From the IMG/VR virus record IMGVR_UViG_3300011115_000949, positions 1 to 64,000 of that record: a DNA stretch of 64,000 bases. One strand, written 5' to 3'. A model generated the notes under the pieces. It worked only from the letters and a program-made list of their open reading frames with translations, was not told where the DNA came from and did no database searches. The position numbers were made by a program, and so were the translations under genes. Of this stretch, positions 5,690 to 62,824 are shown piece by piece (within the stretch, counting starts at the first letter, position 1; each line of letters starts with the position of its first letter). This stretch comes from a virus.

Positions 5690-5695
5690 AAATTT

Positions 5696-5884
5696 TTATT
5701 CCGTAATTTTTAAATTGTAATTAGTAACTTGTTTTCTAAAACTTTCATCTTTAAGATATAAATCCATTGCTCGATTGACAAGTTTATTTAAAGAAAATTT
5801 TCGTCTAACGCATTCTACTTTAAATTCATCAAACAAATCTTTGTCTACTTTAACGGATGTTAATTGTGTTGTTGCATTTTCCAT
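5696..5884 (-). CDS. Small ribbon-helix-helix-like DNA-binding protein
   Basis: 62 aa; beta strand TSVKVD followed by two amphipathic helices (Arc/CopG pattern). Confidence 0.6.
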   Translation of the reverse strand: MENATTQLTSVKVDKDLFDEFKVECVRRKFSLNKLVNRAMDLYLKDESFRKQVTNYNLKITE

Positions 5885-5916
5885 AACATTATATTTGTAT
5901 ATAAATATATTTAAGA

Positions 5917-44737: not shown

Positions 44738-47700
44738 TTATAATTTAGAAGTATTTACCTTAGTACCAGTACCTATATCTGTAGCTTGGTTAGATACTGC
44801 TGTTACTACATTTTTAGCTAACACTTCTTTATTTAATTGAAGTGTGCTGTTTACTGTTAAAGGTGCGCCTTTAAGAGCGGTGGCCACTGCTGCTCCTATA
44901 GCATTGTAATCAATAGATATTGATGTTTTTTCGGTTTTAGATTTAATTGACCCGGCAGGTTTAATTTCCATAGCCTTTCCAGCCATTGATTTTACATCAT
45001 CTCCTTTTTTAAAGGATATATCATTTGTTGTAGCTACAACATTATCATTATTGTTTAATTCTATAGCACCTTCAGGTGCAAGTAAAGTACGTTTTCCATA
45101 TCCTCCTCCACCTTGTGCTGGCGAGAATACGTCATTACCTTTAAATTTATTATATAATGCCATACCTCCAGCAATTGCAGCTGCTGCTGCTCCAAACGCT
45201 AAAATAGGACCAATAATAGGAATACCTGCTACTGCACTTGCTGCTTTTAAAGCCCATTTACCTACATCTACTAACATTCCCGGAAGAGATTTTAATCTTG
45301 TTAATACAGATGCTTTTCCTACAGCCCCTTCAGCGGCTGCTGTTCTTAATTTTGCAGATGCTCTAAATTGTTCTGTGGCTAGTGATATTTTATCTTTAAC
45401 TGCTCCTAAAGCTTTTTGAGCATTTTCTTTTATAACATAACCTAATCCTTGTTTTTTAGCTAAGTTTTTTGCTTTTTCATTTACAATATAATCTTTTTGC
45501 AACATGTTATTAGCATATTGCGCTTTATTAGCTTGTTGATCTGTGATGAATCCTAATTTTTTAGATATATTAATTCTACCCTGAGTAGTAAATATAGAAA
45601 ACATACTCTTAAGTATCTTGCCCATACCTTTACCTATACTTCCCGTTAATAATTTCCATGTAACCATTAAACCAATTACTGGAGATAAAAAGTTAGATAA
45701 TCTACCTAAAAGACTAGCTATCATTCCAACAGGTTTTAATATAAGCATAAAAATGTCTAAAACTGGTAGTAAAGGTGTAACTAAAGAAACAAATACTTCT
45801 TTTAATTTTTCAATAGTTTGATTAAAACGCTCTTGAACACTTTGAGAATTCATCATGTCTTTAAGTTGACCTTTTCTTACTTCTTCTTGAGCTTTTTCTA
45901 AACCAACAGCTTTAACTCTAGCTTCAAAAGCACGTTTAGCTGCTTCAGATTGGTCTTTACCCATTGTTTTTAAAGCTTGTTCTTGAACTAAAGTAGCGGC
46001 TAATTCTTCTCTACTCATTCCAACTGATTTAGCTATAGCTTCTTGTTGAATACGGTTCATTTTAGAAAACTCATTTATATCACCATATTGTTTTCTAATT
46101 TCTTTTGCTAAAGTAACTTGATCATTATTTAATGCTGCTAAACGAGCTCTTTCTAAGTTTATATTTTTACCAGTTAATAATTCTGCTTCTAATTCAGCTC
46201 CTATTGAATCTTCAAATTGTAATAAATGACCTGCAACTTTGTCTAATTGCTCCATTGTCATACCTAATGCTTTAGCAGTAGCTACTGCTTCACCCAATTT
46301 ATTAGGCATACCAGCATACGATGCAAGTGTAGCTTTAGATAATTTAGATATATCATCTAAAACTTCTCGTTCATTTAACATTACCCCGAGTTGATTGCCA
46401 GTTATTTTAGCACTAGCCATCATAGTAGTTACATTTTTTTCTAAATTACCACCTGTAGCAGATGTTAATACTTGTAATTTGGATAATGTTTCTTGAGATA
46501 CTCCCGCTATGTCTCTAAATTTAGCCATCGCTACAGCATCTTTTTCATTAAGTATAGCGTTTGTACCTAATTGTTTACCTATAGCTTGATAAGATTCCAT
46601 TATGCCTTTAGTAGTAACACCTATTGTATTACTTTTATTAGCTATAATGTTTGCTTGATTAGCTATGCCTGCTGCTGCAGAATAACTCATGTTCATGTTT
46701 TTAGCAAATTCTCCTGTTTTAGCATCTATCATTTTAAATGCATCTACAATTCCTTTTACTAAAAACCCTATTATAAAAAGAGGATCTTTTAAATTTTTAA
46801 CTAAATTACCACCTAAATCTTTTACATATGTATTTAATACTTGAGTTCTTTGATTAATTAAAGATTGATTTTTAAGTGCTTCTTGAGATTGTTTTATTTG
46901 TTCTTTATTAAGATCTAATGATTTCTTCTGAGCCCCTATTGCTTCGTTTAATTTTTTTAATTTATCTTCCTCTAATTTAAGTTGTTCTTTTTCTTGGGCA
47001 TTTTGAGATTTTAAAAAATCTAATTTTAATTGTTGTCTTTTTAAGATATCTCCACCTTTGCCTTCTCTAATATCTTCAACACTTAAATTTTTAGTATTTA
47101 AATCTTTTATTTCTTTTTCAAGTTGTAATTCTTTTTGAAGTTGTTTTTCAATATCAGGAAAACTAGCTTTAATTTTACTAATAGCTTGTTCTGAGTCTAT
47201 TTGTTCTTTTAAATTTTTATTAATGTTTTCCTCTAGACTTAAATTTTGATCTGTTAAATCTTTTACAATTTTTTCATTTTTAATTTTATTTTGTAACAAT
47301 TCATCTGCTTTTTCTTGAGCAGCTTTTAATGCTTTATCTAAACCTAAAGTTTCTCCTAATCTTCCTAAACCTAAATTATTAAGTGTGGATTTAAGACCTT
47401 CAGCAGTTGCTCCAGTTAAACCCATTATTTTATCAAATTGTTTAGATTGGTTTACTGAGTTTTCTAGTGATTTGTTTAATTCTTTAAGAGATATATCTTG
47501 TTGAGTTAGTAGATTTTCTACTGTGCTGTATTTACTTGATAATCTATCAGTGCCAACTATTTGTTTTTCTAATTGTGCATTTATTTCTTTTAATGCATCT
47601 TTAGCTTGTTGGTTATTAGCATTAGATTTTAATTGTTGTTGTAAATTTCTTTGTTTTAGTTCTAGTTGTTTTTCTACAGCTTTTGAATATGCTATTTCTT

Positions 47701-48118
47701 CTTCTAATAATGCTTTAGCTCTAAATAATCTATCACTTTCTATTTTAGCCTTTACCTGTAGTTTTTCTATTTCTTGGGTAGACATTCTATTATACCCAGC
47801 TTGATGAGAAGATAATTGTTGAGCGATACTACTTAAATTTTTAAATGCTAAAGTAGTTTGTTGTGCTCCTGCACTAGTATTTTTGACTTCTCCAACTAAA
47901 CGTTGGAAATTACTAACTAAATAATCGGTTTCAGTACTAGCTGATCTAAGCCTATCACCAAATGTTTTAGAAAGAGCATTAATTGCATTTTGGTCCTCTT
48001 TAATAGGTTTAAGATGCCCCGCAATTTTATCAAAATCTTCACCTAATGAAGATAGAGTTTTTCTAAGTTCATCTAGTTGTTTTTTTAATTCATTTGCTTC
48101 TTCTGGGGTAGTTGCCAT
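44738..48118 (-). CDS. Tail tape measure protein
   Basis: 1126 aa, Ala/Lys/Leu-rich helical, hydrophobic segments near the C-terminus; downstream of tube and chaperone genes. Confidence 0.85.
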   Translation of the reverse strand: MATTPEEANELKKQLDELRKTLSSLGEDFDKIAGHLKPIKEDQNAINALSKTFGDRLRSASTETDYLVSNFQRLVGEVKNTSAGAQQTTLAFKNLSSIAQQLSSHQAGYNRMSTQEIEKLQVKAKIESDRLFRAKALLEEEIAYSKAVEKQLELKQRNLQQQLKSNANNQQAKDALKEINAQLEKQIVGTDRLSSKYSTVENLLTQQDISLKELNKSLENSVNQSKQFDKIMGLTGATAEGLKSTLNNLGLGRLGETLGLDKALKAAQEKADELLQNKIKNEKIVKDLTDQNLSLEENINKNLKEQIDSEQAISKIKASFPDIEKQLQKELQLEKEIKDLNTKNLSVEDIREGKGGDILKRQQLKLDFLKSQNAQEKEQLKLEEDKLKKLNEAIGAQKKSLDLNKEQIKQSQEALKNQSLINQRTQVLNTYVKDLGGNLVKNLKDPLFIIGFLVKGIVDAFKMIDAKTGEFAKNMNMSYSAAAGIANQANIIANKSNTIGVTTKGIMESYQAIGKQLGTNAILNEKDAVAMAKFRDIAGVSQETLSKLQVLTSATGGNLEKNVTTMMASAKITGNQLGVMLNEREVLDDISKLSKATLASYAGMPNKLGEAVATAKALGMTMEQLDKVAGHLLQFEDSIGAELEAELLTGKNINLERARLAALNNDQVTLAKEIRKQYGDINEFSKMNRIQQEAIAKSVGMSREELAATLVQEQALKTMGKDQSEAAKRAFEARVKAVGLEKAQEEVRKGQLKDMMNSQSVQERFNQTIEKLKEVFVSLVTPLLPVLDIFMLILKPVGMIASLLGRLSNFLSPVIGLMVTWKLLTGSIGKGMGKILKSMFSIFTTQGRINISKKLGFITDQQANKAQYANNMLQKDYIVNEKAKNLAKKQGLGYVIKENAQKALGAVKDKISLATEQFRASAKLRTAAAEGAVGKASVLTRLKSLPGMLVDVGKWALKAASAVAGIPIIGPILAFGAAAAAIAGGMALYNKFKGNDVFSPAQGGGGYGKRTLLAPEGAIELNNNDNVVATTNDISFKKGDDVKSMAGKAMEIKPAGSIKSKTEKTSISIDYNAIGAAVATALKGAPLTVNSTLQLNKEVLAKNVVTAVSNQATDIGTGTKVNTSKL

Positions 48119-50451: not shown

Positions 50452-52167
50452 TTATGCTGGGAAAGTTGCGCCAGTTGGAGTAACGATGAAATCTAAGTAA
50501 ATAAATTCAGCAGTTTTAGTAGGCTGAACATATATTTGACCTATTAATTGATTTCTATCAATTACGTCTGCTGTATTGTTTGTATCATCCATTACAACTT
50601 TAAATGCATACAAACCTTGTCTTTGTTGTACTGAAGATAAGTATGGATTAACTTGGCTTAAGAATATATTTCTTGTAGCAATTGTATTTTGTTCAAACAC
50701 TAATGTGTTAGCTACTTGAGAAATATATGATTTAAGAGCAATTAACAAACGACGAACATTTACACGATCAAGAGCAGATGGTTTTTGTTGTAAGGTTTTC
50801 TGACCATATACTACAATACCTTGACCAGGGAAAGTAGCTATTGGATTAACTTTACCATTGTAAAGAGTATCACGAGTTGATTGATTTAATTTTTGTTCAA
50901 CACGAATTACAGTTCCTAAACCACCACGATTAATACCTGCTGGTGCAAACCAAGGTTCAGCTACTGAGTCGTTATAAGCATATACACCTATAATCATAGT
51001 AGATGCTGGAACCCAAACGTTTTTACCAGTTCCTGGGTCAAGAATTTGACACCATGGCCAGTATTCAGCAGCATATGAAGTATCACGTGATGCTGCTTGG
51101 CTAACTACTGAAGTATAAGTTGATCCGTATCCTACTGGGTCAAGTACAAAAATACTATCACCACGTTGTAAAGTATTAGATATAATTGTAGATACTGTAC
51201 TAGTATGGTTAGCAAAAGCATCAATTAAACCTGGAGTTATTAGTATATTAAATCTGTAATCATCTTTATTAGATAACAAATTAACCATGTTAGAATAGTT
51301 AGCTGCTACTAAACCTTGAGTATTACCTGCGTTGTTGATATTATTCCAAAAATTAGCTCCACCTTTTACATCACCAGTAGCACCACTAAATGAACCGCTA
51401 GCTGCTGAAGGAATAGAAGAAGTATATTGGTTTTTAGCTACACCATTATTATCTAAATAATCTGGGGTTAATAAACCAACAGAATCAACATAAACATAAG
51501 ATGAGTTATTTCTAAAGCTACCAGTTAATTCAATTTGATTAGTACTAGGATTATAATTATAAACATAATCACCAATTACTTTAGATACGAAATTATTTGA
51601 TTTTGGGTCTAATGATAAACCTGTAAATTGTTCTAATACAATTTTACTGTTAGTTATATCATCACCTCTTCTAATTAATAAATCAAAAGTACCAGAAGAA
51701 GTACTTGGATTAACAATTTCCCAACGGATATTATTGCTTGAACCACTTACTAAAGCACCTGCAGAATCTAGTGCTCCAGAACTGTTCATAATAATACCTT
51801 TAGATATTGTTTTAAGAACAAAAGCAGGTTGAGAAGAAGCTTGAGTACTAGCGCTAATAGCAGTACTTGTAGCTGAGGTATATGAACCAGATACTACACG
51901 AGCTACTAATAACGAGTCTCCACCATTATTAAAATAGTTGTAAGCCGCTATTGAAGTGAAATACGAATAAGTATCACTACCACTAACTAATACATCACCA
52001 AATTTATTTACATAATCTGTGTATGATGATACTAATGTAGGTAATTCTACGGGACCTTTTACAGTAGGGCCTATAATTGCTGCGCCTACAGTTACTGGTT
52101 GAGCTGATACTTGTGAGCGGTCGATTTCTCTAGCAAGTACACCAGGGGATATTAAAGTTTCTGCCAT
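50452..52167 (-). CDS. Tail sheath protein (T4 gp18-like)
   Basis: SPGV..REID, PWFAPAG..RG, GQKT, RVNVRRL, FEQN, PTKTAEFI. Confidence 0.95.
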   Translation of the reverse strand: MAETLISPGVLAREIDRSQVSAQPVTVGAAIIGPTVKGPVELPTLVSSYTDYVNKFGDVLVSGSDTYSYFTSIAAYNYFNNGGDSLLVARVVSGSYTSATSTAISASTQASSQPAFVLKTISKGIIMNSSGALDSAGALVSGSSNNIRWEIVNPSTSSGTFDLLIRRGDDITNSKIVLEQFTGLSLDPKSNNFVSKVIGDYVYNYNPSTNQIELTGSFRNNSSYVYVDSVGLLTPDYLDNNGVAKNQYTSSIPSAASGSFSGATGDVKGGANFWNNINNAGNTQGLVAANYSNMVNLLSNKDDYRFNILITPGLIDAFANHTSTVSTIISNTLQRGDSIFVLDPVGYGSTYTSVVSQAASRDTSYAAEYWPWCQILDPGTGKNVWVPASTMIIGVYAYNDSVAEPWFAPAGINRGGLGTVIRVEQKLNQSTRDTLYNGKVNPIATFPGQGIVVYGQKTLQQKPSALDRVNVRRLLIALKSYISQVANTLVFEQNTIATRNIFLSQVNPYLSSVQQRQGLYAFKVVMDDTNNTADVIDRNQLIGQIYVQPTKTAEFIYLDFIVTPTGATFPA

Positions 52168-55137: not shown

Positions 55138-55160
55138 GTAATATTTTTATTATAAATATG

Positions 55161-58100
55161 TTAAGCTAGTAAACCTAACTGCCTTAGAGCCTTAACTACT
55201 TGAGCTATTGTATACCCGTCGTAAGTATCAGCATCGTTAAGAGCTACACCAGGGTTGCTAGTAAATGTTGAACTTGCACCAGCTGTTGTAGGTTGTGTAA
55301 CAGTTGTTGCTCCAAAAAATCCTATACTTTGATTATCTTTGCATTGAATCGTTTTAGCGGCTGATGAATTTTCAACTTGAAATGTTGTAGTTGCTGACGT
55401 AGATCCGGCTCCCATAACAATTAGTCTTGCAGCCGTAGAAGGGCCACCTACACCTACTTCTCCAGTATATGAAATAGTAAATCTTTCACGAGCTGCTGTA
55501 GTTTCATAGATACTAAGCTGACCATTATACATTTTGTATATTAACCAATTACTATTAACACCTGCACTAGTAGTACCAAGTGATATACCTGCATAAACAG
55601 GTTTTACAATAGCTATACCGTTTGTACCACCTAAATAACTGCTAGGAGAGGTAGTACCTATACCAACATCATTACTATTATTAACATATAGTAAATTTGA
55701 TCCAACTTGAAGTTGAGTAGCGTTTGAACTTGAAACTGTAAGTGAACCGGTAATTAAAACATTTTGATTAAGTGGGTTTACAAATGAAGCGGTTGAAGCA
55801 AATGAAGATGTAAGAGCAGTTGTTGCGTATGATGCTGTTCCTAAGAGTGAGCCTGTAAATGAACCAGTAAATGAACTACCTGTTATGCCTAAAGTAGTAT
55901 TTAACGAACCTGTTACTAAAACACTACCTGAAACGTTAAGTGAACCTGTAACAGTATGTACATCTGTAATAACGTTTCCTATTTTTACCCCTGTAGGTAA
56001 AACTTGAAATTCAATTGCACTACCAGTAAATACTGTAAACGAACCCGTAACTACAGAGCTACCTGATACTAAGAGTGAACCAGTTATTAAAGCACTACCT
56101 GTTATATCTAATTTAGCGTTTGGAGCTGATGATTTTCCAATAGCTAAACTAGAACTATTCATTATAATTCTTTGGTTTTGACCTAAATAAGCGTGAAATG
56201 CTTCATTGCCCGTAAGATTATCTTTCATTATAACTTCTCCACCACTAGGATCACCGTATCCTGAGTAGCCTACAAAGGTAAAATTATATCCACTATATGT
56301 TTTCCAACTTGTAGCAACTGAAGGGTTAAAAGTAAGAGAAGTATTTAAAGTATTAAAATTAATAGAATCATAGGCATCAATGTTTAATCCTGCTACCGCT
56401 CCTCCTGAATTTCCTGAGAATCTACCTATTCTGCCTCCATTGGTATGAAATAATTCCACTATACCTCCTACAGTAGAACTACCAGTAACTCTAAAATAAG
56501 TAGTGTTACCTACATTAGCCATTAAACTACCTGTACCTACATTAAATGTAGCATTTCCATTGTCTGCTATAGTTAAGATAGAGGTACCTGCACTATTTTC
56601 TACAAGCATAGTGTTTGTAGCAGATGTAGTACCTGAACCTTTAACTCTTAGTGAATTTGAAGCAGAGCCGGTTATTGTAACATTTTGGTTTAATGGGTTT
56701 ACAAATGAAGCGGTTGATGCGAATGAAGCTGTAAGAGCGGTTGTTGCATATGATGCTGTACCTGTTAAGGGACCAATGTGTGATCCTGAAAACGAGCTAG
56801 CAGTGATGTCTGATTTAAAATAAGCAGAACCACTAGCTGTAATTTTAGCTACTACTTCAGTACCTCCTGAGTTTTGCCATTCTGTAATGCTACCTGTGCC
56901 TGCTTGGCCTGAGGCTGCTCTAACCATTAAATTAACCCCAGTTGTATCTGGGTTTTTAATTAACATGGAGTAATTATTAGGGTATGCAGGTTGAGAACCT
57001 CCATACGGGTATGTATATATATTTACGTTAGATACAGTACCAGCAGCATTATATACCCCAAAGCATACATTATAATTTCCTCCATTTAAAAATAATGGTC
57101 CTCCATATGCTTGTATAATGTGAGAAGTACCACCAATAGCATTAAATTCTAATTTAGGAGAATAATAATCTGTTGGGGCCTTTAATATTATACCTGTACC
57201 TGCACCTGTAGCTTGATTTATAGTTAAAGAACCAGTGTTTACAGTTACATTACCATTATCTGCTACAGCAAATGTGTTTATATTACTACTATTTTCAAGA
57301 TAAAGAGTATTTGTAGCTGAAGTAGCTCCTGAGCCTTTGACCCTTAAAGAATTTGAAGCAGAGCCTGTAATTAAAACGTTTTGATTAAGCGGATTTACAT
57401 ACGATGCGGTTGATGCAAATGAAGAACTTACTGCATTTAAAACGTAAGATGCAGTATTTGCATTTGAGGCAGTTAATGCTTGAGTAGCATAGGATGCTGT
57501 ACCTAAAAATGAACCAGTTATACCTGCACTTACTTCTAATGACCCTGTAATAACTTGACTTCCTATAATATCTAAAGTAGCATTTAAAGAAGAAGATTTT
57601 GCTATACCAATTCTACCTGAACTAGAAATAAATAGTCTAGTAAGATTAGAGGCACCAGACTGAAGATAATGGTCTCCAGCTGATCGTAATAACATATATC
57701 CTCTACTGCTACCAAATTCTATCATATAGCCTGTATTAGCTATTTGCATAATATTTCCACTAGTTTGGTAACCTTGGAATGTTGTACTTGCTATTGTAAG
57801 AGTAGGATAATAATAGGTTGGTGGATATATAGGAAGATTTATTGAATTGTTTGGCCCATATACTATAAGCGAACCTGTGATTGTAGTATTACCATTTACA
57901 TGTAAAGTTGTACTTGGTGTTGTAGTATTTATACCTACTCTAGCATCATCTCTAACAACTAAAGAAGCAGTGTTTCCACTGTTTTCTATATAAAGAGTAT
58001 TTGTTGCTGACGTAGCTCCTGATCCTTTAACTCTTAATGAGTTTGAAGCTGATCCTGTTATTTCAACGTTTTGATTAAGTGGATTTACGTACGATGCAGT

Positions 58101-59849
58101 TGATGCAAATGAAGCACTTACTGCATTTAAAACGTAAGATGCTGTTTGAGCTGTAGCTACATAAGAAGCTGTTACAGCATAAGATGCAGTTGTAGCTGTT
58201 GCTGCATTTCCTGAAATAGAACCTGAGAAAAAGGATGAATTTTCCCATTTTAAGGCTGTTGAATCATATATTAAAGCCTGGCCATCAGTTGGTCCTGATA
58301 TGTTAACATCAGATAGACCGGATAAAGTTGTTGTTACAGTAGAACCTCCACCACCTGATCCTCCTACGCTTCTAAATAGACCTCCTGGGATTATTTTATA
58401 TGAGTTACTATCTGTAAAGGTAGCATTGTTTCTTAAAATCAAAGAGCCTAAGTAAAGTGCTTGAGCAGCTGTATTAGGAGCTTCAGTAAATGATTCTATA
58501 TTTATATTTGCTATAGCATCTAAATCAGTTGGATACTGATTATTACCATAGTAAACATAAATACCTTTTGTAACACTATTAGGAAACCAATACACCCTTT
58601 GAATTGACCATCCTCTAATAGCACCACTTCCTGTTACAGGAGTTAAAACACCATTATTTGAATATTGTGTTGGATCTATTGTTGGATACCCGGCACCCCC
58701 ATTAGTATCATATACCCAAGCTGCTGATCCGGATTGGCGGTATCTAAATATTTTAGATACTGTGGTTCCTGCATCTGTAATATAAGATGGATTATTTGGA
58801 TCAATTGTATAATTTCTACCATCCGACCAAGCAGTACCTGATGCTACTACTAAGCTACCAGTTGAAGAACCACTTGCAGATAAAGTAAATCCTGATAACT
58901 TTAATGGACCAAATGCTCTAATAAAATCAGAAGATCTTTGTTTCCAACCATAAGCAAGTGAAGCAAATGTTTGAGTACCATTGATTGTAGAACGGTTTTG
59001 ATGAACTACAACACCAATAGGAATTGTAGTATTAAACTGCCCATCATTATATGGAGTACCTTGAGTAAATATATTACTTGTATTATCAATTGCAACAAAT
59101 GTTTGATCATAAGATGCACTTAAAGGAGCAATACTGGCTGATAAATTAGGCCAGTTAAGATATTGTACTGTAGGATAAGGATTATCGTTAAACGATGCGT
59201 TTAAATTTACAATAACACCACTACCACTACTTACTTGATAAACAGTAGATGATTGAGTTGTAATTAAACCACCATTTAATAGCCCAGTATATAAATTACC
59301 TTCTATCCAACGAAGACGAGTTGTATTACTATATCCATTACCATTTTGAGAAAAGTATAAATCGTTTGTAGAACCACTTACATAAATGTAAGATGCTGAT
59401 ATTGTTGTATCTATGTTTGTAGTTACAGGATCAAATCTATGATAGCCAGATTGTCTTATATCTCCGTATATTTGAACTGAAGCAGTTGCAGCACCTGGGC
59501 TTGTAGATCCTGAAATTATAATACTGCCGGATAGCGTAGTATTTCCTAAAAGAGTATTGTTACCAACTTGTAAAGTAGAACCACTTACATTTAAGCTACC
59601 AGTTAATGTAGTAGAGCCTATTAATGTGTTTGAACCAGTAGTAAATAAACTGCCTGTTATTATTTGGTTGCCTACAAATGTATTTGAGCCAGTGGTTGCA
59701 AATACAGTACTGTCTTTACCATCTAATAAGTCTGCGTTTAAAGCATATGAAGCGGTTCCTAAAAGTGAACCTGTTACACCGGCGGTAACATTTAATGAGT
59801 TTAGACTGGCGTCAGAGCCAGATACTATGACTTTTTTCCAATTTGGCAT
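55161..59849 (-). CDS. Large Ser/Thr/Gly-rich fibre-like virion protein with repeated modules
   Basis: 1562 aa; many TGS/SGS and GTASYA repeats; VGIGTTSP-type fibre repeats. Confidence 0.75.
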   Translation of the reverse strand: MPNWKKVIVSGSDASLNSLNVTAGVTGSLLGTASYALNADLLDGKDSTVFATTGSNTFVGNQIITGSLFTTGSNTLIGSTTLTGSLNVSGSTLQVGNNTLLGNTTLSGSIIISGSTSPGAATASVQIYGDIRQSGYHRFDPVTTNIDTTISASYIYVSGSTNDLYFSQNGNGYSNTTRLRWIEGNLYTGLLNGGLITTQSSTVYQVSSGSGVIVNLNASFNDNPYPTVQYLNWPNLSASIAPLSASYDQTFVAIDNTSNIFTQGTPYNDGQFNTTIPIGVVVHQNRSTINGTQTFASLAYGWKQRSSDFIRAFGPLKLSGFTLSASGSSTGSLVVASGTAWSDGRNYTIDPNNPSYITDAGTTVSKIFRYRQSGSAAWVYDTNGGAGYPTIDPTQYSNNGVLTPVTGSGAIRGWSIQRVYWFPNSVTKGIYVYYGNNQYPTDLDAIANINIESFTEAPNTAAQALYLGSLILRNNATFTDSNSYKIIPGGLFRSVGGSGGGGSTVTTTLSGLSDVNISGPTDGQALIYDSTALKWENSSFFSGSISGNAATATTASYAVTASYVATAQTASYVLNAVSASFASTASYVNPLNQNVEITGSASNSLRVKGSGATSATNTLYIENSGNTASLVVRDDARVGINTTTPSTTLHVNGNTTITGSLIVYGPNNSINLPIYPPTYYYPTLTIASTTFQGYQTSGNIMQIANTGYMIEFGSSRGYMLLRSAGDHYLQSGASNLTRLFISSSGRIGIAKSSSLNATLDIIGSQVITGSLEVSAGITGSFLGTASYATQALTASNANTASYVLNAVSSSFASTASYVNPLNQNVLITGSASNSLRVKGSGATSATNTLYLENSSNINTFAVADNGNVTVNTGSLTINQATGAGTGIILKAPTDYYSPKLEFNAIGGTSHIIQAYGGPLFLNGGNYNVCFGVYNAAGTVSNVNIYTYPYGGSQPAYPNNYSMLIKNPDTTGVNLMVRAASGQAGTGSITEWQNSGGTEVVAKITASGSAYFKSDITASSFSGSHIGPLTGTASYATTALTASFASTASFVNPLNQNVTITGSASNSLRVKGSGTTSATNTMLVENSAGTSILTIADNGNATFNVGTGSLMANVGNTTYFRVTGSSTVGGIVELFHTNGGRIGRFSGNSGGAVAGLNIDAYDSINFNTLNTSLTFNPSVATSWKTYSGYNFTFVGYSGYGDPSGGEVIMKDNLTGNEAFHAYLGQNQRIIMNSSSLAIGKSSAPNAKLDITGSALITGSLLVSGSSVVTGSFTVFTGSAIEFQVLPTGVKIGNVITDVHTVTGSLNVSGSVLVTGSLNTTLGITGSSFTGSFTGSLLGTASYATTALTSSFASTASFVNPLNQNVLITGSLTVSSSNATQLQVGSNLLYVNNSNDVGIGTTSPSSYLGGTNGIAIVKPVYAGISLGTTSAGVNSNWLIYKMYNGQLSIYETTAARERFTISYTGEVGVGGPSTAARLIVMGAGSTSATTTFQVENSSAAKTIQCKDNQSIGFFGATTVTQPTTAGASSTFTSNPGVALNDADTYDGYTIAQVVKALRQLGLLA
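55751..58142 (-). repeat. Imperfect ~160-nt module repeats in the fibre gene (approx. 57982-58142, 57292-57452, 56596-56760; partial 55751-55840)
   Basis: Recurring FASTAS(Y/F)VNPLNQNV.ITGSASNSLRVKGSG.TSATNT...ENS; boundaries approximate. Confidence 0.85.
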
Positions 59850-59863
59850 CGTACATTTAGTTT

Positions 59864-59928
59864 ATATTGTGGTTAGATACATACACTATGCCGTGTATAT
59901 GCCTACTTCCTTTGCAGGCCAACAATAT
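59864..59928 (-). ncRNA. Putative cis-regulatory three-way-junction RNA in the fibre-gene 5' leader
   Basis: P1 ATATTG(T)TGG/CCACAATAT; P2 CCT-GCAA-AGG; P3 TAGG(C)ATATACAC-GGCATA-GTGTATGT(A)TCTA. Confidence 0.6.
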
Positions 59929-59955
59929 TCTATAATAAATATAGTAAAATAACTG

Positions 59956-60183
59956 TTATTTTTTAGCTTTTTTATCTTCTCTAGCTAATGTTTCTTGTAA
60001 TTCTTGTTGCTTTTTAGTTTCTTCTTGTTTAAGCATTTCTTGAATTTGTGCAAATTCCTGTTCTAATTTAACTTGTAAATTTGCTACAAATTTAGCATCT
60101 TTACCACTAATAGTAATAGTATCTAGTGATTGACGAAGACATTGAATTTCTCCAGGAGTTAAATCTATTGAAAAAATATTCAT
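59956..60183 (-). CDS. Small helical hypothetical protein
   Basis: LTPGEIQ.L...L....ISG.D pattern resembles the next ORF; lies between fibre genes. Confidence 0.6.
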   Translation of the reverse strand: MNIFSIDLTPGEIQCLRQSLDTITISGKDAKFVANLQVKLEQEFAQIQEMLKQEETKKQQELQETLAREDKKAKK

Positions 60184-60189
60184 AAACTT

Positions 60190-60408
60190 TTATTTTTTTA
60201 TTTGTTGTAACGTTTTATATTGGTTTTGTAATTTTAATGCTGTGTTATATATAATTTCTACGTGTTCGCCTTTAAAAGTGCTACTACGTATTAATTGTAA
60301 TATAAGTTGAATTTCTTCAAGTGTCAAGCTATTTTGATCACTTGACCCTACCTTTTCAGGTGTTTTATAATTTCCAGCATTAAGAGCCATAACTAATTTT
60401 TTAAACAT
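60190..60408 (-). CDS. Small helical hypothetical protein
   Basis: LTLEEIQLILQLI..STFKGE..KLQ; similar to 59956..60183. Confidence 0.6.
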   Translation of the reverse strand: MFKKLVMALNAGNYKTPEKVGSSDQNSLTLEEIQLILQLIRSSTFKGEHVEIIYNTALKLQNQYKTLQQIKK

Positions 60409-61730
60409 TACGAGTAGATGAATATATCTCCCGTACTACTATTTACATATATATTACCGTATCCGTTTGATGTACCACCCCAAGTTGGGTTTGTTGCAGG
60501 AGCACCAGCAGCCGTTTTAGCTGTTACTACAAATTCGTCTGCTGTTAAAGCTGTTACTGTACCTACAGCATCGTATGCTACTGCAAAACGACCATATGTT
60601 CCAGTTGAACCAGCTGAACCAGCTTCTAAATAAAATGCTGAACCTGAACCTGCTGTATTATATTGGGTAATCCAACCTGAGTCTGCTAATGCAGACGAAC
60701 CACTATTAATTAAGATAAACTTATCTCTAATAGTTAAGTTATCTACGTTTGTAAATGAAGCTGTACCTGCTACTGTTAAGTCACCAGTTACAGTTGCATT
60801 ACCAGTTACTGCTAATGTAGTACCGTCAAATGTTAAATTACTTTCACCGTTTATAGTTCCAGCACCTGTTGCAGTTAATATTCTATTATCTGTATTATTG
60901 GTAATAGCGTTTGTAATGTTATTTACGTTAGCAGCGTAAGATGAACTTACAGCTACTGAAGAACTTAAAGCATATGATGCTGTTGTAGCAAATGAAGAGC
61001 TTATAGAATTTAAAACATAAGATGCAGTTGAAGCAAAAGATGCACTTACACCTTGTAAAACATAAGATGCAGTTGAAGCAAATGAACTACTTAAAGCGTA
61101 AGATGCACTTACTGCAACAGACGAACTTAAAGCGTAAGATGAACTGTTAGCATTATTAGCATATGAAGCAGTTGCAGGTACATTAGCTGCGTATGAAGCT
61201 GTAGTAGCAAATGATGAACTAAGTGAATATGATGAACTTACAGCAACAGATGAACTTAAAGCGTAAGAAGCACTATTTGCTTGGGAAGCATAAGAAGCAG
61301 TACCAGTTAAAGTACCAACATGAGAACCAGTAAATGAAGCAGTAATTGAAGTAGCAGTAATAGAGGTAATACCTGTAATAGTAGAAGCTAAAGTTAAACT
61401 ATCACTTGACTCTACTGCTAAATTAGTACCAGCTAAATCTGTTAATAAGTCACCATATGTAATGTATTGGTTACTACTTTGGCTAACAAAGAATTTATCT
61501 GTACTAGTAATGTTGCTTACTTGGGAAGTAGGGAATATTGCAGTTGCAGTAACACCAGTTAAATTACTACCGTCACCTTTAAATGAACCAGTAAATGAAC
61601 CAGTTAAAAACGTTCCCGCTTGTGTTGTTGTTATTGATTGATTAGTACCTACTAATACGCCTAAACTAGAAGTTACTGCTGCTAATTCAGCTTGCGATCC
61701 CGATACTATGACTTTTTTCCAAGTTGCCAT
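60408..61730 (-). CDS. Ser/Ala-rich fibre-like virion protein
   Basis: WKKVIVSGS N-terminus shared with 55161..59849; tandem ASYA/SSFA repeats. Confidence 0.7.
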   Translation of the reverse strand: MATWKKVIVSGSQAELAAVTSSLGVLVGTNQSITTTQAGTFLTGSFTGSFKGDGSNLTGVTATAIFPTSQVSNITSTDKFFVSQSSNQYITYGDLLTDLAGTNLAVESSDSLTLASTITGITSITATSITASFTGSHVGTLTGTASYASQANSASYALSSSVAVSSSYSLSSSFATTASYAANVPATASYANNANSSSYALSSSVAVSASYALSSSFASTASYVLQGVSASFASTASYVLNSISSSFATTASYALSSSVAVSSSYAANVNNITNAITNNTDNRILTATGAGTINGESNLTFDGTTLAVTGNATVTGDLTVAGTASFTNVDNLTIRDKFILINSGSSALADSGWITQYNTAGSGSAFYLEAGSAGSTGTYGRFAVAYDAVGTVTALTADEFVVTAKTAAGAPATNPTWGGTSNGYGNIYVNSSTGDIFIYS

Positions 61731-61771
61731 TATGTTCTAAATTGAATTGTTGTTTATAAATATGTTAAGTT

Positions 61772-62797: not shown

Positions 62798-62824
62798 TTA
62801 TATTTTTATTATAAATATGAAGAG

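Follow-up and report, generated by a model that had tools for sequence, protein, structure and literature searches.

In the large myovirus represented by IMG/VR record IMGVR_UViG_3300011115_000949, the leader of the largest tail-fibre gene is, judged by comparison with its homologues, one copy of a widespread, uncatalogued and structured RNA located in cis. The RNA is a three-way junction that stands between a late-promoter motif and the start of fibre genes of one particular type, and copies of it occur in well over a hundred aquatic phages from lakes, rivers and the sea. Compensatory base changes in two sets of homologues, collected in different ways, carry this conclusion.

The fibre-gene leader and its fold

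The window, that is, the whole stretch of 64,000 nucleotides analysed here, is part of a 99.8-kb record with 31.6% G+C; its genes lie on the minus strand throughout and encode a myovirus tail module (Table 1). By its sheath protein, the closest cultured relative is Flavobacterium phage vB_FspM_immuto (53% identity). A collection of cultured phages queried with the leader region (as nucleotides) and the fibre N-terminus (as protein) returned no matches, and phage immuto was found via its tail sheath and the covariance model described below. DNA nearly identical to window positions 57500-61500 occurs in lake, river and freshwater metagenomes from several studies, with parts of it in six RNA libraries, and the phage lineage of the window is widespread in fresh water. 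Two gaps elsewhere on the minus strand also attracted our attention. The 524-nt 'intergenic' gap at 1304-1827 resembles a stop-interrupted class-I methyltransferase (...LHLGCGTKHLEGY...VDEIYACHVLEHF...ILKPGG...) and may be a broken or recoded gene, and the 227-nt gap at 5690-5916 holds an uncalled ORF (MENATTQLTSVKVDKDLFDEFK..., about 62 aa) that is like a ribbon-helix-helix regulator.

Most structural genes of the window have the word (T/C)ATATTTAT(A/T)A 10-30 nt before their ATG, as in the stretches 55138-55160, 61731-61771 and 62798-62824 ahead of minus-strand genes. Read on the opposite strand, TATTTATA becomes TATAAATA, the late word of T4. Ordinary late leaders in this phage measure 10-30 nt from motif to ATG and have 7-25% G+C. 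The leader of the fibre gene is the exception, with an intergenic region of 106 nt, 31% G+C and the motif 83 nt before the ATG; late genes of 3.1-3.4 kb elsewhere in the phage are without a comparable leader. The gene downstream of the fibre has a late motif of its own, in a gap of 23 nt. We found no terminator-like site and no U-tract between 59600 and 60250, and the tail that follows P1 reads AUAUAAACUAAAUG.

A preliminary description of this DNA had drawn attention to a fibre-gene leader longer and more GC-rich than other late leaders and devoid of a U-tract, and had folded it into a three-way junction (P1, a GCAA-capped P2, P3 and an AAG/A junction) that starts 6 nt past the late motif and stops 14 nt before the ATG. 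The length, the composition, the missing U-tract and both distances were borne out, and every listed element of the fold is present in the sequence. P1 is formed by 59928-59919 with 59872-59864, giving 9 bp with one bulge, and P3 comprises 13 positions that include G.U pairs and one C.A. In the class to which the window copy belongs, the P3 stem is an (AU/GU)n repeat in which two registers, two bases apart, are possible. A C-G to U-A change in two homologous loci (L088 and L093) favours the unshifted register; in most other classes a 2-nt bulge (AA or UA) on the 3' strand of P3 fixes the register, and the window copy has G.U and C.A at that place. The folding energy of the leader was discarded as proof of structure, since its z-scores of -1.8 and -2.2 are uninformative and the minimum-energy fold draws P2 wrongly, replacing the tetraloop hairpin by another helix. 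Also set aside was a 6-codon upstream ORF within P3 (AUG UAU CUA ...), which is not conserved in class 2.

Table 1. Coordinates of the leader RNA, its parts and the surrounding genes in the window.
Feature	Position	Strand	Remark
Late-promoter motif TATATTTATTA, core TATTTAT at 59941-59935	59933-59943	-	Motif common to most window genes
Whole three-way-junction RNA	59864-59928	-	Model match spans 59862-59930
P1 5' arm, AUAUUGU(U)GG; U59921 bulged; U59922, G59920 and G59919 invariant	59919-59928	-	Pair counts
P2 hairpin, CCU-GCAA-AGG	59909-59918	-	C-G to U-A in 3 homologues
Junction strand AAG; with U59905 gives the invariant AGU of the core	59906-59908	-	Invariant columns A24, G25, T26
P3 long arm, from base to tip: UAG/CUA, G.U and C.A, 8-bp upper stem	59874-59905	-	Covariation
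P3 loop GGCAUA	59887-59892	-	GGCAU complementary to AUGCC, 59849-59845
Junction A; with A59874 gives the invariant AA facing AGU	59873	-	Invariant columns A57, A58
P1 3' arm, CCACAAUAU	59864-59872	-	Pair counts
A/U-rich spacer, 14 nt, from P1 to start codon	59850-59863	-	Family spacers 8-24 nt
Downstream gene: 1562-aa tail-fibre protein, start MPNWKKVIVSGS, ~4.7 kb	55161-59849	-	Largest fibre gene
Small protein B, 75 aa	59956-60183	-	Gene end 12 nt before promoter motif
Small protein A, 72 aa, paralogue of B, helix hairpin	60190-60408	-	AlphaFold2 model
Paralogous fibre gene, MATWKK start	60408-61730	-	Short ordinary leader, RNA element absent
Tail sheath gene	50452-52167	-	Myovirus tail module
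Tape measure gene	44738-48118	-	Myovirus tail module

Covariation, conserved core and distribution of the family

With the fibre N-terminus and the upstream paralogous fibre as queries, we collected 160 loci from viral contigs. All ORFs among them that start with MP(N/S)WK(K/R) carry a homologous leader, and 58 of these leaders are distinct; the MATWKK-start paralogue has short ordinary leaders only. When the leaders were aligned by MAFFT and a consensus was derived by RNAalifold, the three stems were recovered. In the 58-leader alignment 98.2% of the cells are paired, compared with 29-42% when the 3' partners were slid by 1-3 columns, and 114 cells are compensatory, compared with 20 at most in the slid controls; none of 500 shuffles equalled the observed pairing or covariation score. 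Compensatory changes were found in all three stems. In P1, column pair 8-80 is GC in 34 sequences and AU in 22, and columns 5-83 and 6-82 show such changes too; at the base of P3, column pair 39-74 is AU in 33 and GC in 23; and the upper-stem pairs of P3 covary as well. Two positions hold G.U-type pairs (U.G in 20 of 56 sequences and G.U in 44 of 56), and because these would read A.C on the opposite strand, the fold belongs to the mRNA-sense strand.

A covariance model built from the homologous leaders (R1) gives the window copy 84.3 bits (E 5e-24), with the runner-up site in the window at 13.7 bits, and finds one copy in the 99.8-kb record. Because the first loci had been fetched through fibre proteins, we added a second set, collected on viral contigs by a degenerate RNA pattern with no protein query. 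R1 confirmed 73 of the 80 pattern matches that were fetched (E < 1e-7), the protein-fetched set having given 66 model hits at E < 1e-7. Pairing in the pattern set is 97.5%, compared with 27-47% after sliding, and 135 cells are compensatory. In all, we have 124 distinct homologues, each directly ahead of an MP(N/S)WKK-start ORF; pairing is retained in about 98% of the cells. The preliminary description had let its proposal hang on covariation in homologous leaders, and such covariation is present in both of the differently collected sets. We hold it to be almost certain that the leader-RNA family is real and functional.

Members of the family measure 56-74 nt. Their invariant core reads U.GGCC / GRAGU.G / C.AACC, and the window copy has every invariant column. 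Invariant or near-invariant are U9, G11, G12, C13 and (C14), then (G21), G22, A24, G25, U26 and G28, and on the 3' side C55, A57, A58, C59 and C60. These conserved bases cluster at the junction, where they make up the top two pairs of P1, the bottom two of P2 and the bottom three of P3, along with the AGU and AA that stay unpaired. The outer arms P2 and P3 vary freely in length and loop: P2 is capped by GAAA, GCAA, GUAA, UUCG or long inserts, and P3 ranges from 3+3 bp with a 3-nt loop up to 13 bp.

The family comes from large aquatic myoviruses related to immuto and is represented by one copy per genome. Phage immuto itself has a single R1 copy (48.3 bits, MW353176.1 137845-137904), which precedes immuto35A_218, a 'putative tail fiber-like protein' with an MPSWKK start; the pair G11-C60, invariant in the alignments, is A-U in this copy. 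Each of the 73 RNAs of the pattern set stands before an ORF starting with MP(N/S)W(K/R/N)(K/R), save a copy at a contig edge and those with endonuclease inserts. As the ORFs downstream range from about 150 to more than 2500 aa, the RNA goes with the conserved fibre N-terminal module and its locus and not with fibre size. In bacterial and archaeal genomes (596 Gb) the RNA pattern gave at least 120 exact matches, and R1 confirmed 0 of 80 among the matches listed; these cellular matches, from G+C-rich genomes, were rejected as chance.

The inserts are of two kinds. A gene for a 241-aa NUMOD1/GIY-YIG-like endonuclease lies between RNA and fibre ORF in loci L135 (2126-2851, plus strand) and L232, and an 81-aa HNH-type ORF that begins with the fibre's own MPN occupies the same place in locus L172 (1550-1795, minus strand). 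Two unrelated homing-endonuclease-type genes have been inserted exactly at the RNA/fibre boundary in different phages, and the leader now precedes the endonuclease. The conserved RNA and the sequence encoding the fibre N-terminus together resemble a hot spot for homing.

Position in the transcript and possible pairing at the P3 tip

From the end of the core TATTTAT to the first pair of P1 there are 5-10 nt in most of the 66 homologues (mode 5; 6 in the window), and, given a start spacing like that of the T4 late promoters, the fold would lie at, or a few bases from, the 5' end of the late transcript. Leader and early coding region are spanned by contigs from RNA libraries of four freshwater or river metatranscriptome runs, and the leaders of relatives occur in RNA libraries as loose ends; since these contigs extend across the promoter as well and could derive from DNA, they give no start, strand or level.

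The tip of P3 is complementary to the start region in many members. In the window copy, the loop GGCAU with AUGCC, the start codon and the next two bases, gives -8.0 kcal/mol (z -2.2 compared with shuffled loops). In class 1, whose loop is GGCAUAA (GGCAUA in the window), pairing with AUGCC amounts to 5-7 bp and -7 to -10 kcal/mol, at z-scores of about -2 to -5; the protein sequence dictates AUGCC, so that covariation is impossible for this pairing. Class 2, whose P3 stem is unrelated, carries the tips G-CAUAUU-C or G-CAUU-C, and immuto-type tips read GGCAA(A/U)CC. In total, the tip contains CAU in 73 and GCA in 77 of the 124 distinct members, in classes with unrelated P3 stems; the excess of GCAU could reflect common descent or a different contact. 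Independent support comes from a separate clade with the loop ACUCACU, in which AGUGAGU is retained 1-6 nt ahead of the AUG although flanks and spacing vary; its duplex reaches -10 to -12 kcal/mol with each member's own spacer but -0.6 with the spacers of other members. Two single loci fit the pairing as well, one with the loop GGCACC and GG before its AUG (L083) and one with a GUG start and an ACACA loop opposite GGUGUG (L157). Loop-to-start pairing is possible in about 60% of members. About 38%, GAAA-capped P3 arms included, lack such complementarity, so the pairing is not a universal mechanism, and the contact would be lineage-specific or optional.

If the start region must reach the tip of the arm, a longer P3 is expected to go with a longer spacer. 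Over sequences, P3 length and spacer length correlate with a Spearman coefficient of 0.76; the correlation is weaker once related sequences are pooled, at 0.44-0.49 over 16-31 clusters (p 0.01-0.05). Three other lines were abandoned. A duplex test of the whole aptamer against the start region came out about 1.9 kcal/mol better than shuffles, but was driven by shared words and the loop contact, and loop-only duplex tests were substituted for it. Some members, such as L118 and L007 with 12 bp, extend the class-1 pairing into the spacer, but this is not general across members. A bias in the second codon (CCA in 96 of 124) was dropped as a sign of pairing, as the MATWKK paralogue is equally A-ending (GCA), which indicates a general preference of the start region.

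Known RNAs, rival readings and a possible function

The preliminary description had recognised no riboswitch or ribozyme consensus in the leader, and no Rfam 15 family matches the window at gathering score. With E allowed up to 10, all that the leader and the immuto copy attract is noise of the miRNA and snoRNA kind, at E 0.1-6. A full-text literature search found no description of this fibre-leader RNA, and hardly any structured leader RNA is known from a phage structural gene. The glutamine-I riboswitch (glnA RNA, RF01739; 5DDO/5DDP) is nevertheless built to a similar plan. It is likewise a three-way junction of ~60 nt in which P1 runs straight into the P2 hairpin, it shares the words UUGGCCC, where P1 turns into P2, and GGAAGUA(A)GG, which leads into P3, and it has in common a variable P2 loop, a site near the start codon and, at the foot of P3, an AGU facing AA, which in glutamine-I is the core of a bulged-G E-loop. 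Published constructs read CGUUGGCCCAG-GAAA-CUGGGUGGAAGUAAGGCCC...GGGCCUGAAGCAACG (PMC5393176); glutamine is contacted by C1-G59, G2-C58 and the G22 base triple, and glutamine riboswitches act translationally (PMC6698751). In the leader RNA, by contrast, the P1 pairs equivalent to these contacts covary freely (UA 53, CG 3; GC 34, AU 22), the G22 linker (a CG joining P2 to the GAAGUA strand) is missing, a covarying Watson-Crick pair (AU 33, GC 23) stands in place of the sheared A.G of the E-loop, and the junction has an additional invariant G-C pair. The context also differs, being phage tail fibre and not nitrogen metabolism, with all copies preceding a fibre ORF or an inserted endonuclease. 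Over the whole 99.8-kb record the best score of RF01739 is 13.1 bits, at a site other than the leader, which yields none; the gathering score is 35 bits. Because the glutamine-I model scores nothing at the leader, the glutamine-contacting bases are unconserved and a covarying Watson-Crick pair replaces the sheared A.G, sequence comparison places the leader RNA outside the glutamine-I family; despite the similar plan, it is not a glutamine riboswitch.

T4 has translational operators with known protein partners, namely the leader pseudoknot of gene 32, the hairpin of gene 43 and the RegA sites. These, too, are cis RNAs in phage mRNA leaders, beside the initiation region and with a one-gene output, and the window phage, which like T4 is a large myovirus, has a late-promoter word similar to that of T4. 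In structure and target, however, the two differ: hairpins, a pseudoknot or unstructured sites act on replication genes in T4, whereas the leader RNA is a three-way junction on a fibre gene. As in operators of this type, the element overlaps or abuts the initiation region, with P1 14 nt from the AUG and the loop complementary to AUGCC. In Escherichia coli, the rpsO/S15 and thrS operators are leader pseudoknots or anticodon-arm mimics that trap or exclude the ribosome, with S15 and ThrRS as partners. The leader RNA resembles them in being a structured leader with a hairpin loop at the start region, and the class-1 CAU is likewise complementary to AUG; but there is no homology, and its pairing, missing from those members without complementarity, is deduced from complementarity only.

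We propose, with about even confidence, that the leader RNA is a cis-acting translational operator, and it would most likely set how much of the MPNWKK fibre is made. Such an operator would form at or near the 5' end of the late transcript, and its folded body, ending 8-24 nt before the AUG, would lie within or beside the stretch that the 30S subunit must occupy. In many lineages the P3 tip would pair with the start-codon region (here GGCAU with AUGCC), giving a pseudoknot that would hinder initiation. The invariant E-loop-like junction would fix the geometry of the arms or dock a trans factor, whose recognition site it likely is, and binding of that factor would shift the balance and hence the amount or timing of the MPNWKK fibre compared with its MATWKK paralogue. 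The trans factor is more likely to be a protein, of phage or host, than a metabolite. The preliminary description had spoken of a new cis-regulatory motif; that the element is real, conserved, located in cis, outside all Rfam families and strictly tied to the MPNWKK-type fibre gene has been upheld, and the regulatory half of the claim is one that we infer.

The two small upstream paralogues had been suggested as its protein partners. The locus order of MATWKK fibre, A, often B, RNA and MPNWKK fibre holds across the family, and the gene for protein A lies just upstream in nearly every RNA locus. Protein B is absent from many loci that keep the RNA and is therefore not its universal partner. The AlphaFold2 model of A (mean pLDDT 77.7) is a plain helix hairpin with helices at residues 30-42 and 49-71, and A and B, both of them short helix hairpins, share the motif L-[ST]-x-x-E-[IL]-x-x-[LI]-L ... 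G ... Y ... K-L-Q (alignment A3). Neither matched a Pfam or PHROG family, nor any RNA-binding family. Profile comparison with the PDB returned designed helical-repeat proteins and weak EF-hand helices only; the type A profile aligned repeat after repeat with the designed toroids dTor_9x31L and dTor_12x31L (E 1e-27 to 1e-34), a likeness that is probably a generic helix-turn-helix resemblance. An Atlas search with A and B gave viral hypothetical proteins only. A and B may be fibre chaperones or RNA partners, the gene order being explained equally well if they are fibre assembly factors.

Other readings of the RNA have to be weighed against a translational operator. We consider it unlikely that the RNA is a riboswitch whose junction binds a small molecule and whose ligand-dependent folding opens or closes the start region in the manner of glutamine-I. 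The common layout (P1 into P2, the E-loop-like AGU:AA core at the base of P3, nearness to the AUG), the shared words UUGGCCC and GGAAGUA, the about 14 invariant junction bases and the translational action of glutamine riboswitches agree with it, and some papers mention glutamine riboswitches together with cyanophages. The RF01739 result and the want of a relevant Rfam match at E up to 10 argue the other way, as do the free covariation at the contact equivalents and the absent linker; in addition, only four unpaired junction bases leave little room for a pocket, and a structural target gene offers no metabolic logic. Just as doubtful is a structure that guards the 4.7-kb fibre mRNA from 5'-end-dependent decay or marks read-through RNA for cleavage. 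Protection by a 5' stem-loop is established in bacteria (the ompA leader), a P1 only 5-10 nt past the promoter core would leave few or no unpaired 5' bases, and read-through from the MATWKK operon is possible, there being no upstream terminator and the RNA-library contigs crossing the promoter. For protection, however, a plain hairpin is enough and an invariant junction with three arms is needless; message length is not the common factor, given the range of downstream ORFs, and other long late genes of this phage do without such a leader.

A role in transcription, in which the nascent RNA would modify or pause the late RNA polymerase, is very unlikely in our view. The put RNAs of HK022, two stem-loops that make RNA polymerase terminator-resistant, are small multi-stem cis RNAs right after a phage promoter, and the leader RNA, compact and multi-stemmed, would likewise be made first. 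But no terminator-like site exists in or beside the leader, the gene that follows the fibre is preceded by a late motif, and the close, length-matched spacing to the AUG points to translation. Least probable of all are a self-cleaving ribozyme and an independent small RNA, such as a decoy whose CAU loop resembles an anticodon. The hammerhead, too, is a three-way junction built round a conserved core, and the class-1 loop GGCAUAA ends like the anticodon loop of initiator tRNA, which contains CAUAA. Yet no ribozyme or tRNA-like family matches, the core words of the hammerhead are absent, about 40% of members lack the CAU loop, and the RNA has no terminator or 3' end of its own.

In summary, the leader RNA of MPNWKK-type fibre genes is a compact new RNA junction suited to structural study, 56 nt at its smallest and with strong covariation support. 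Because a copy exists in a cultured pair, Flavobacterium sp. LMO8 with phage immuto, direct testing is possible. The fibre gene behind the RNA has an enormously variable receptor-binding part, and the RNA is a defined handle on tail-fibre dosing in large phages. There is a small chance that it is a true sensor, either a new riboswitch class shaped distantly like glutamine-I or a protein-responsive switch, that doses the MPNWKK fibre against the MATWKK fibre via a pseudoknot at the P3 tip. If so, the composition of virion fibres, and perhaps host range, would be under control at the RNA level, and the sensing of a signal would make virion composition depend on the state of the infected cell.
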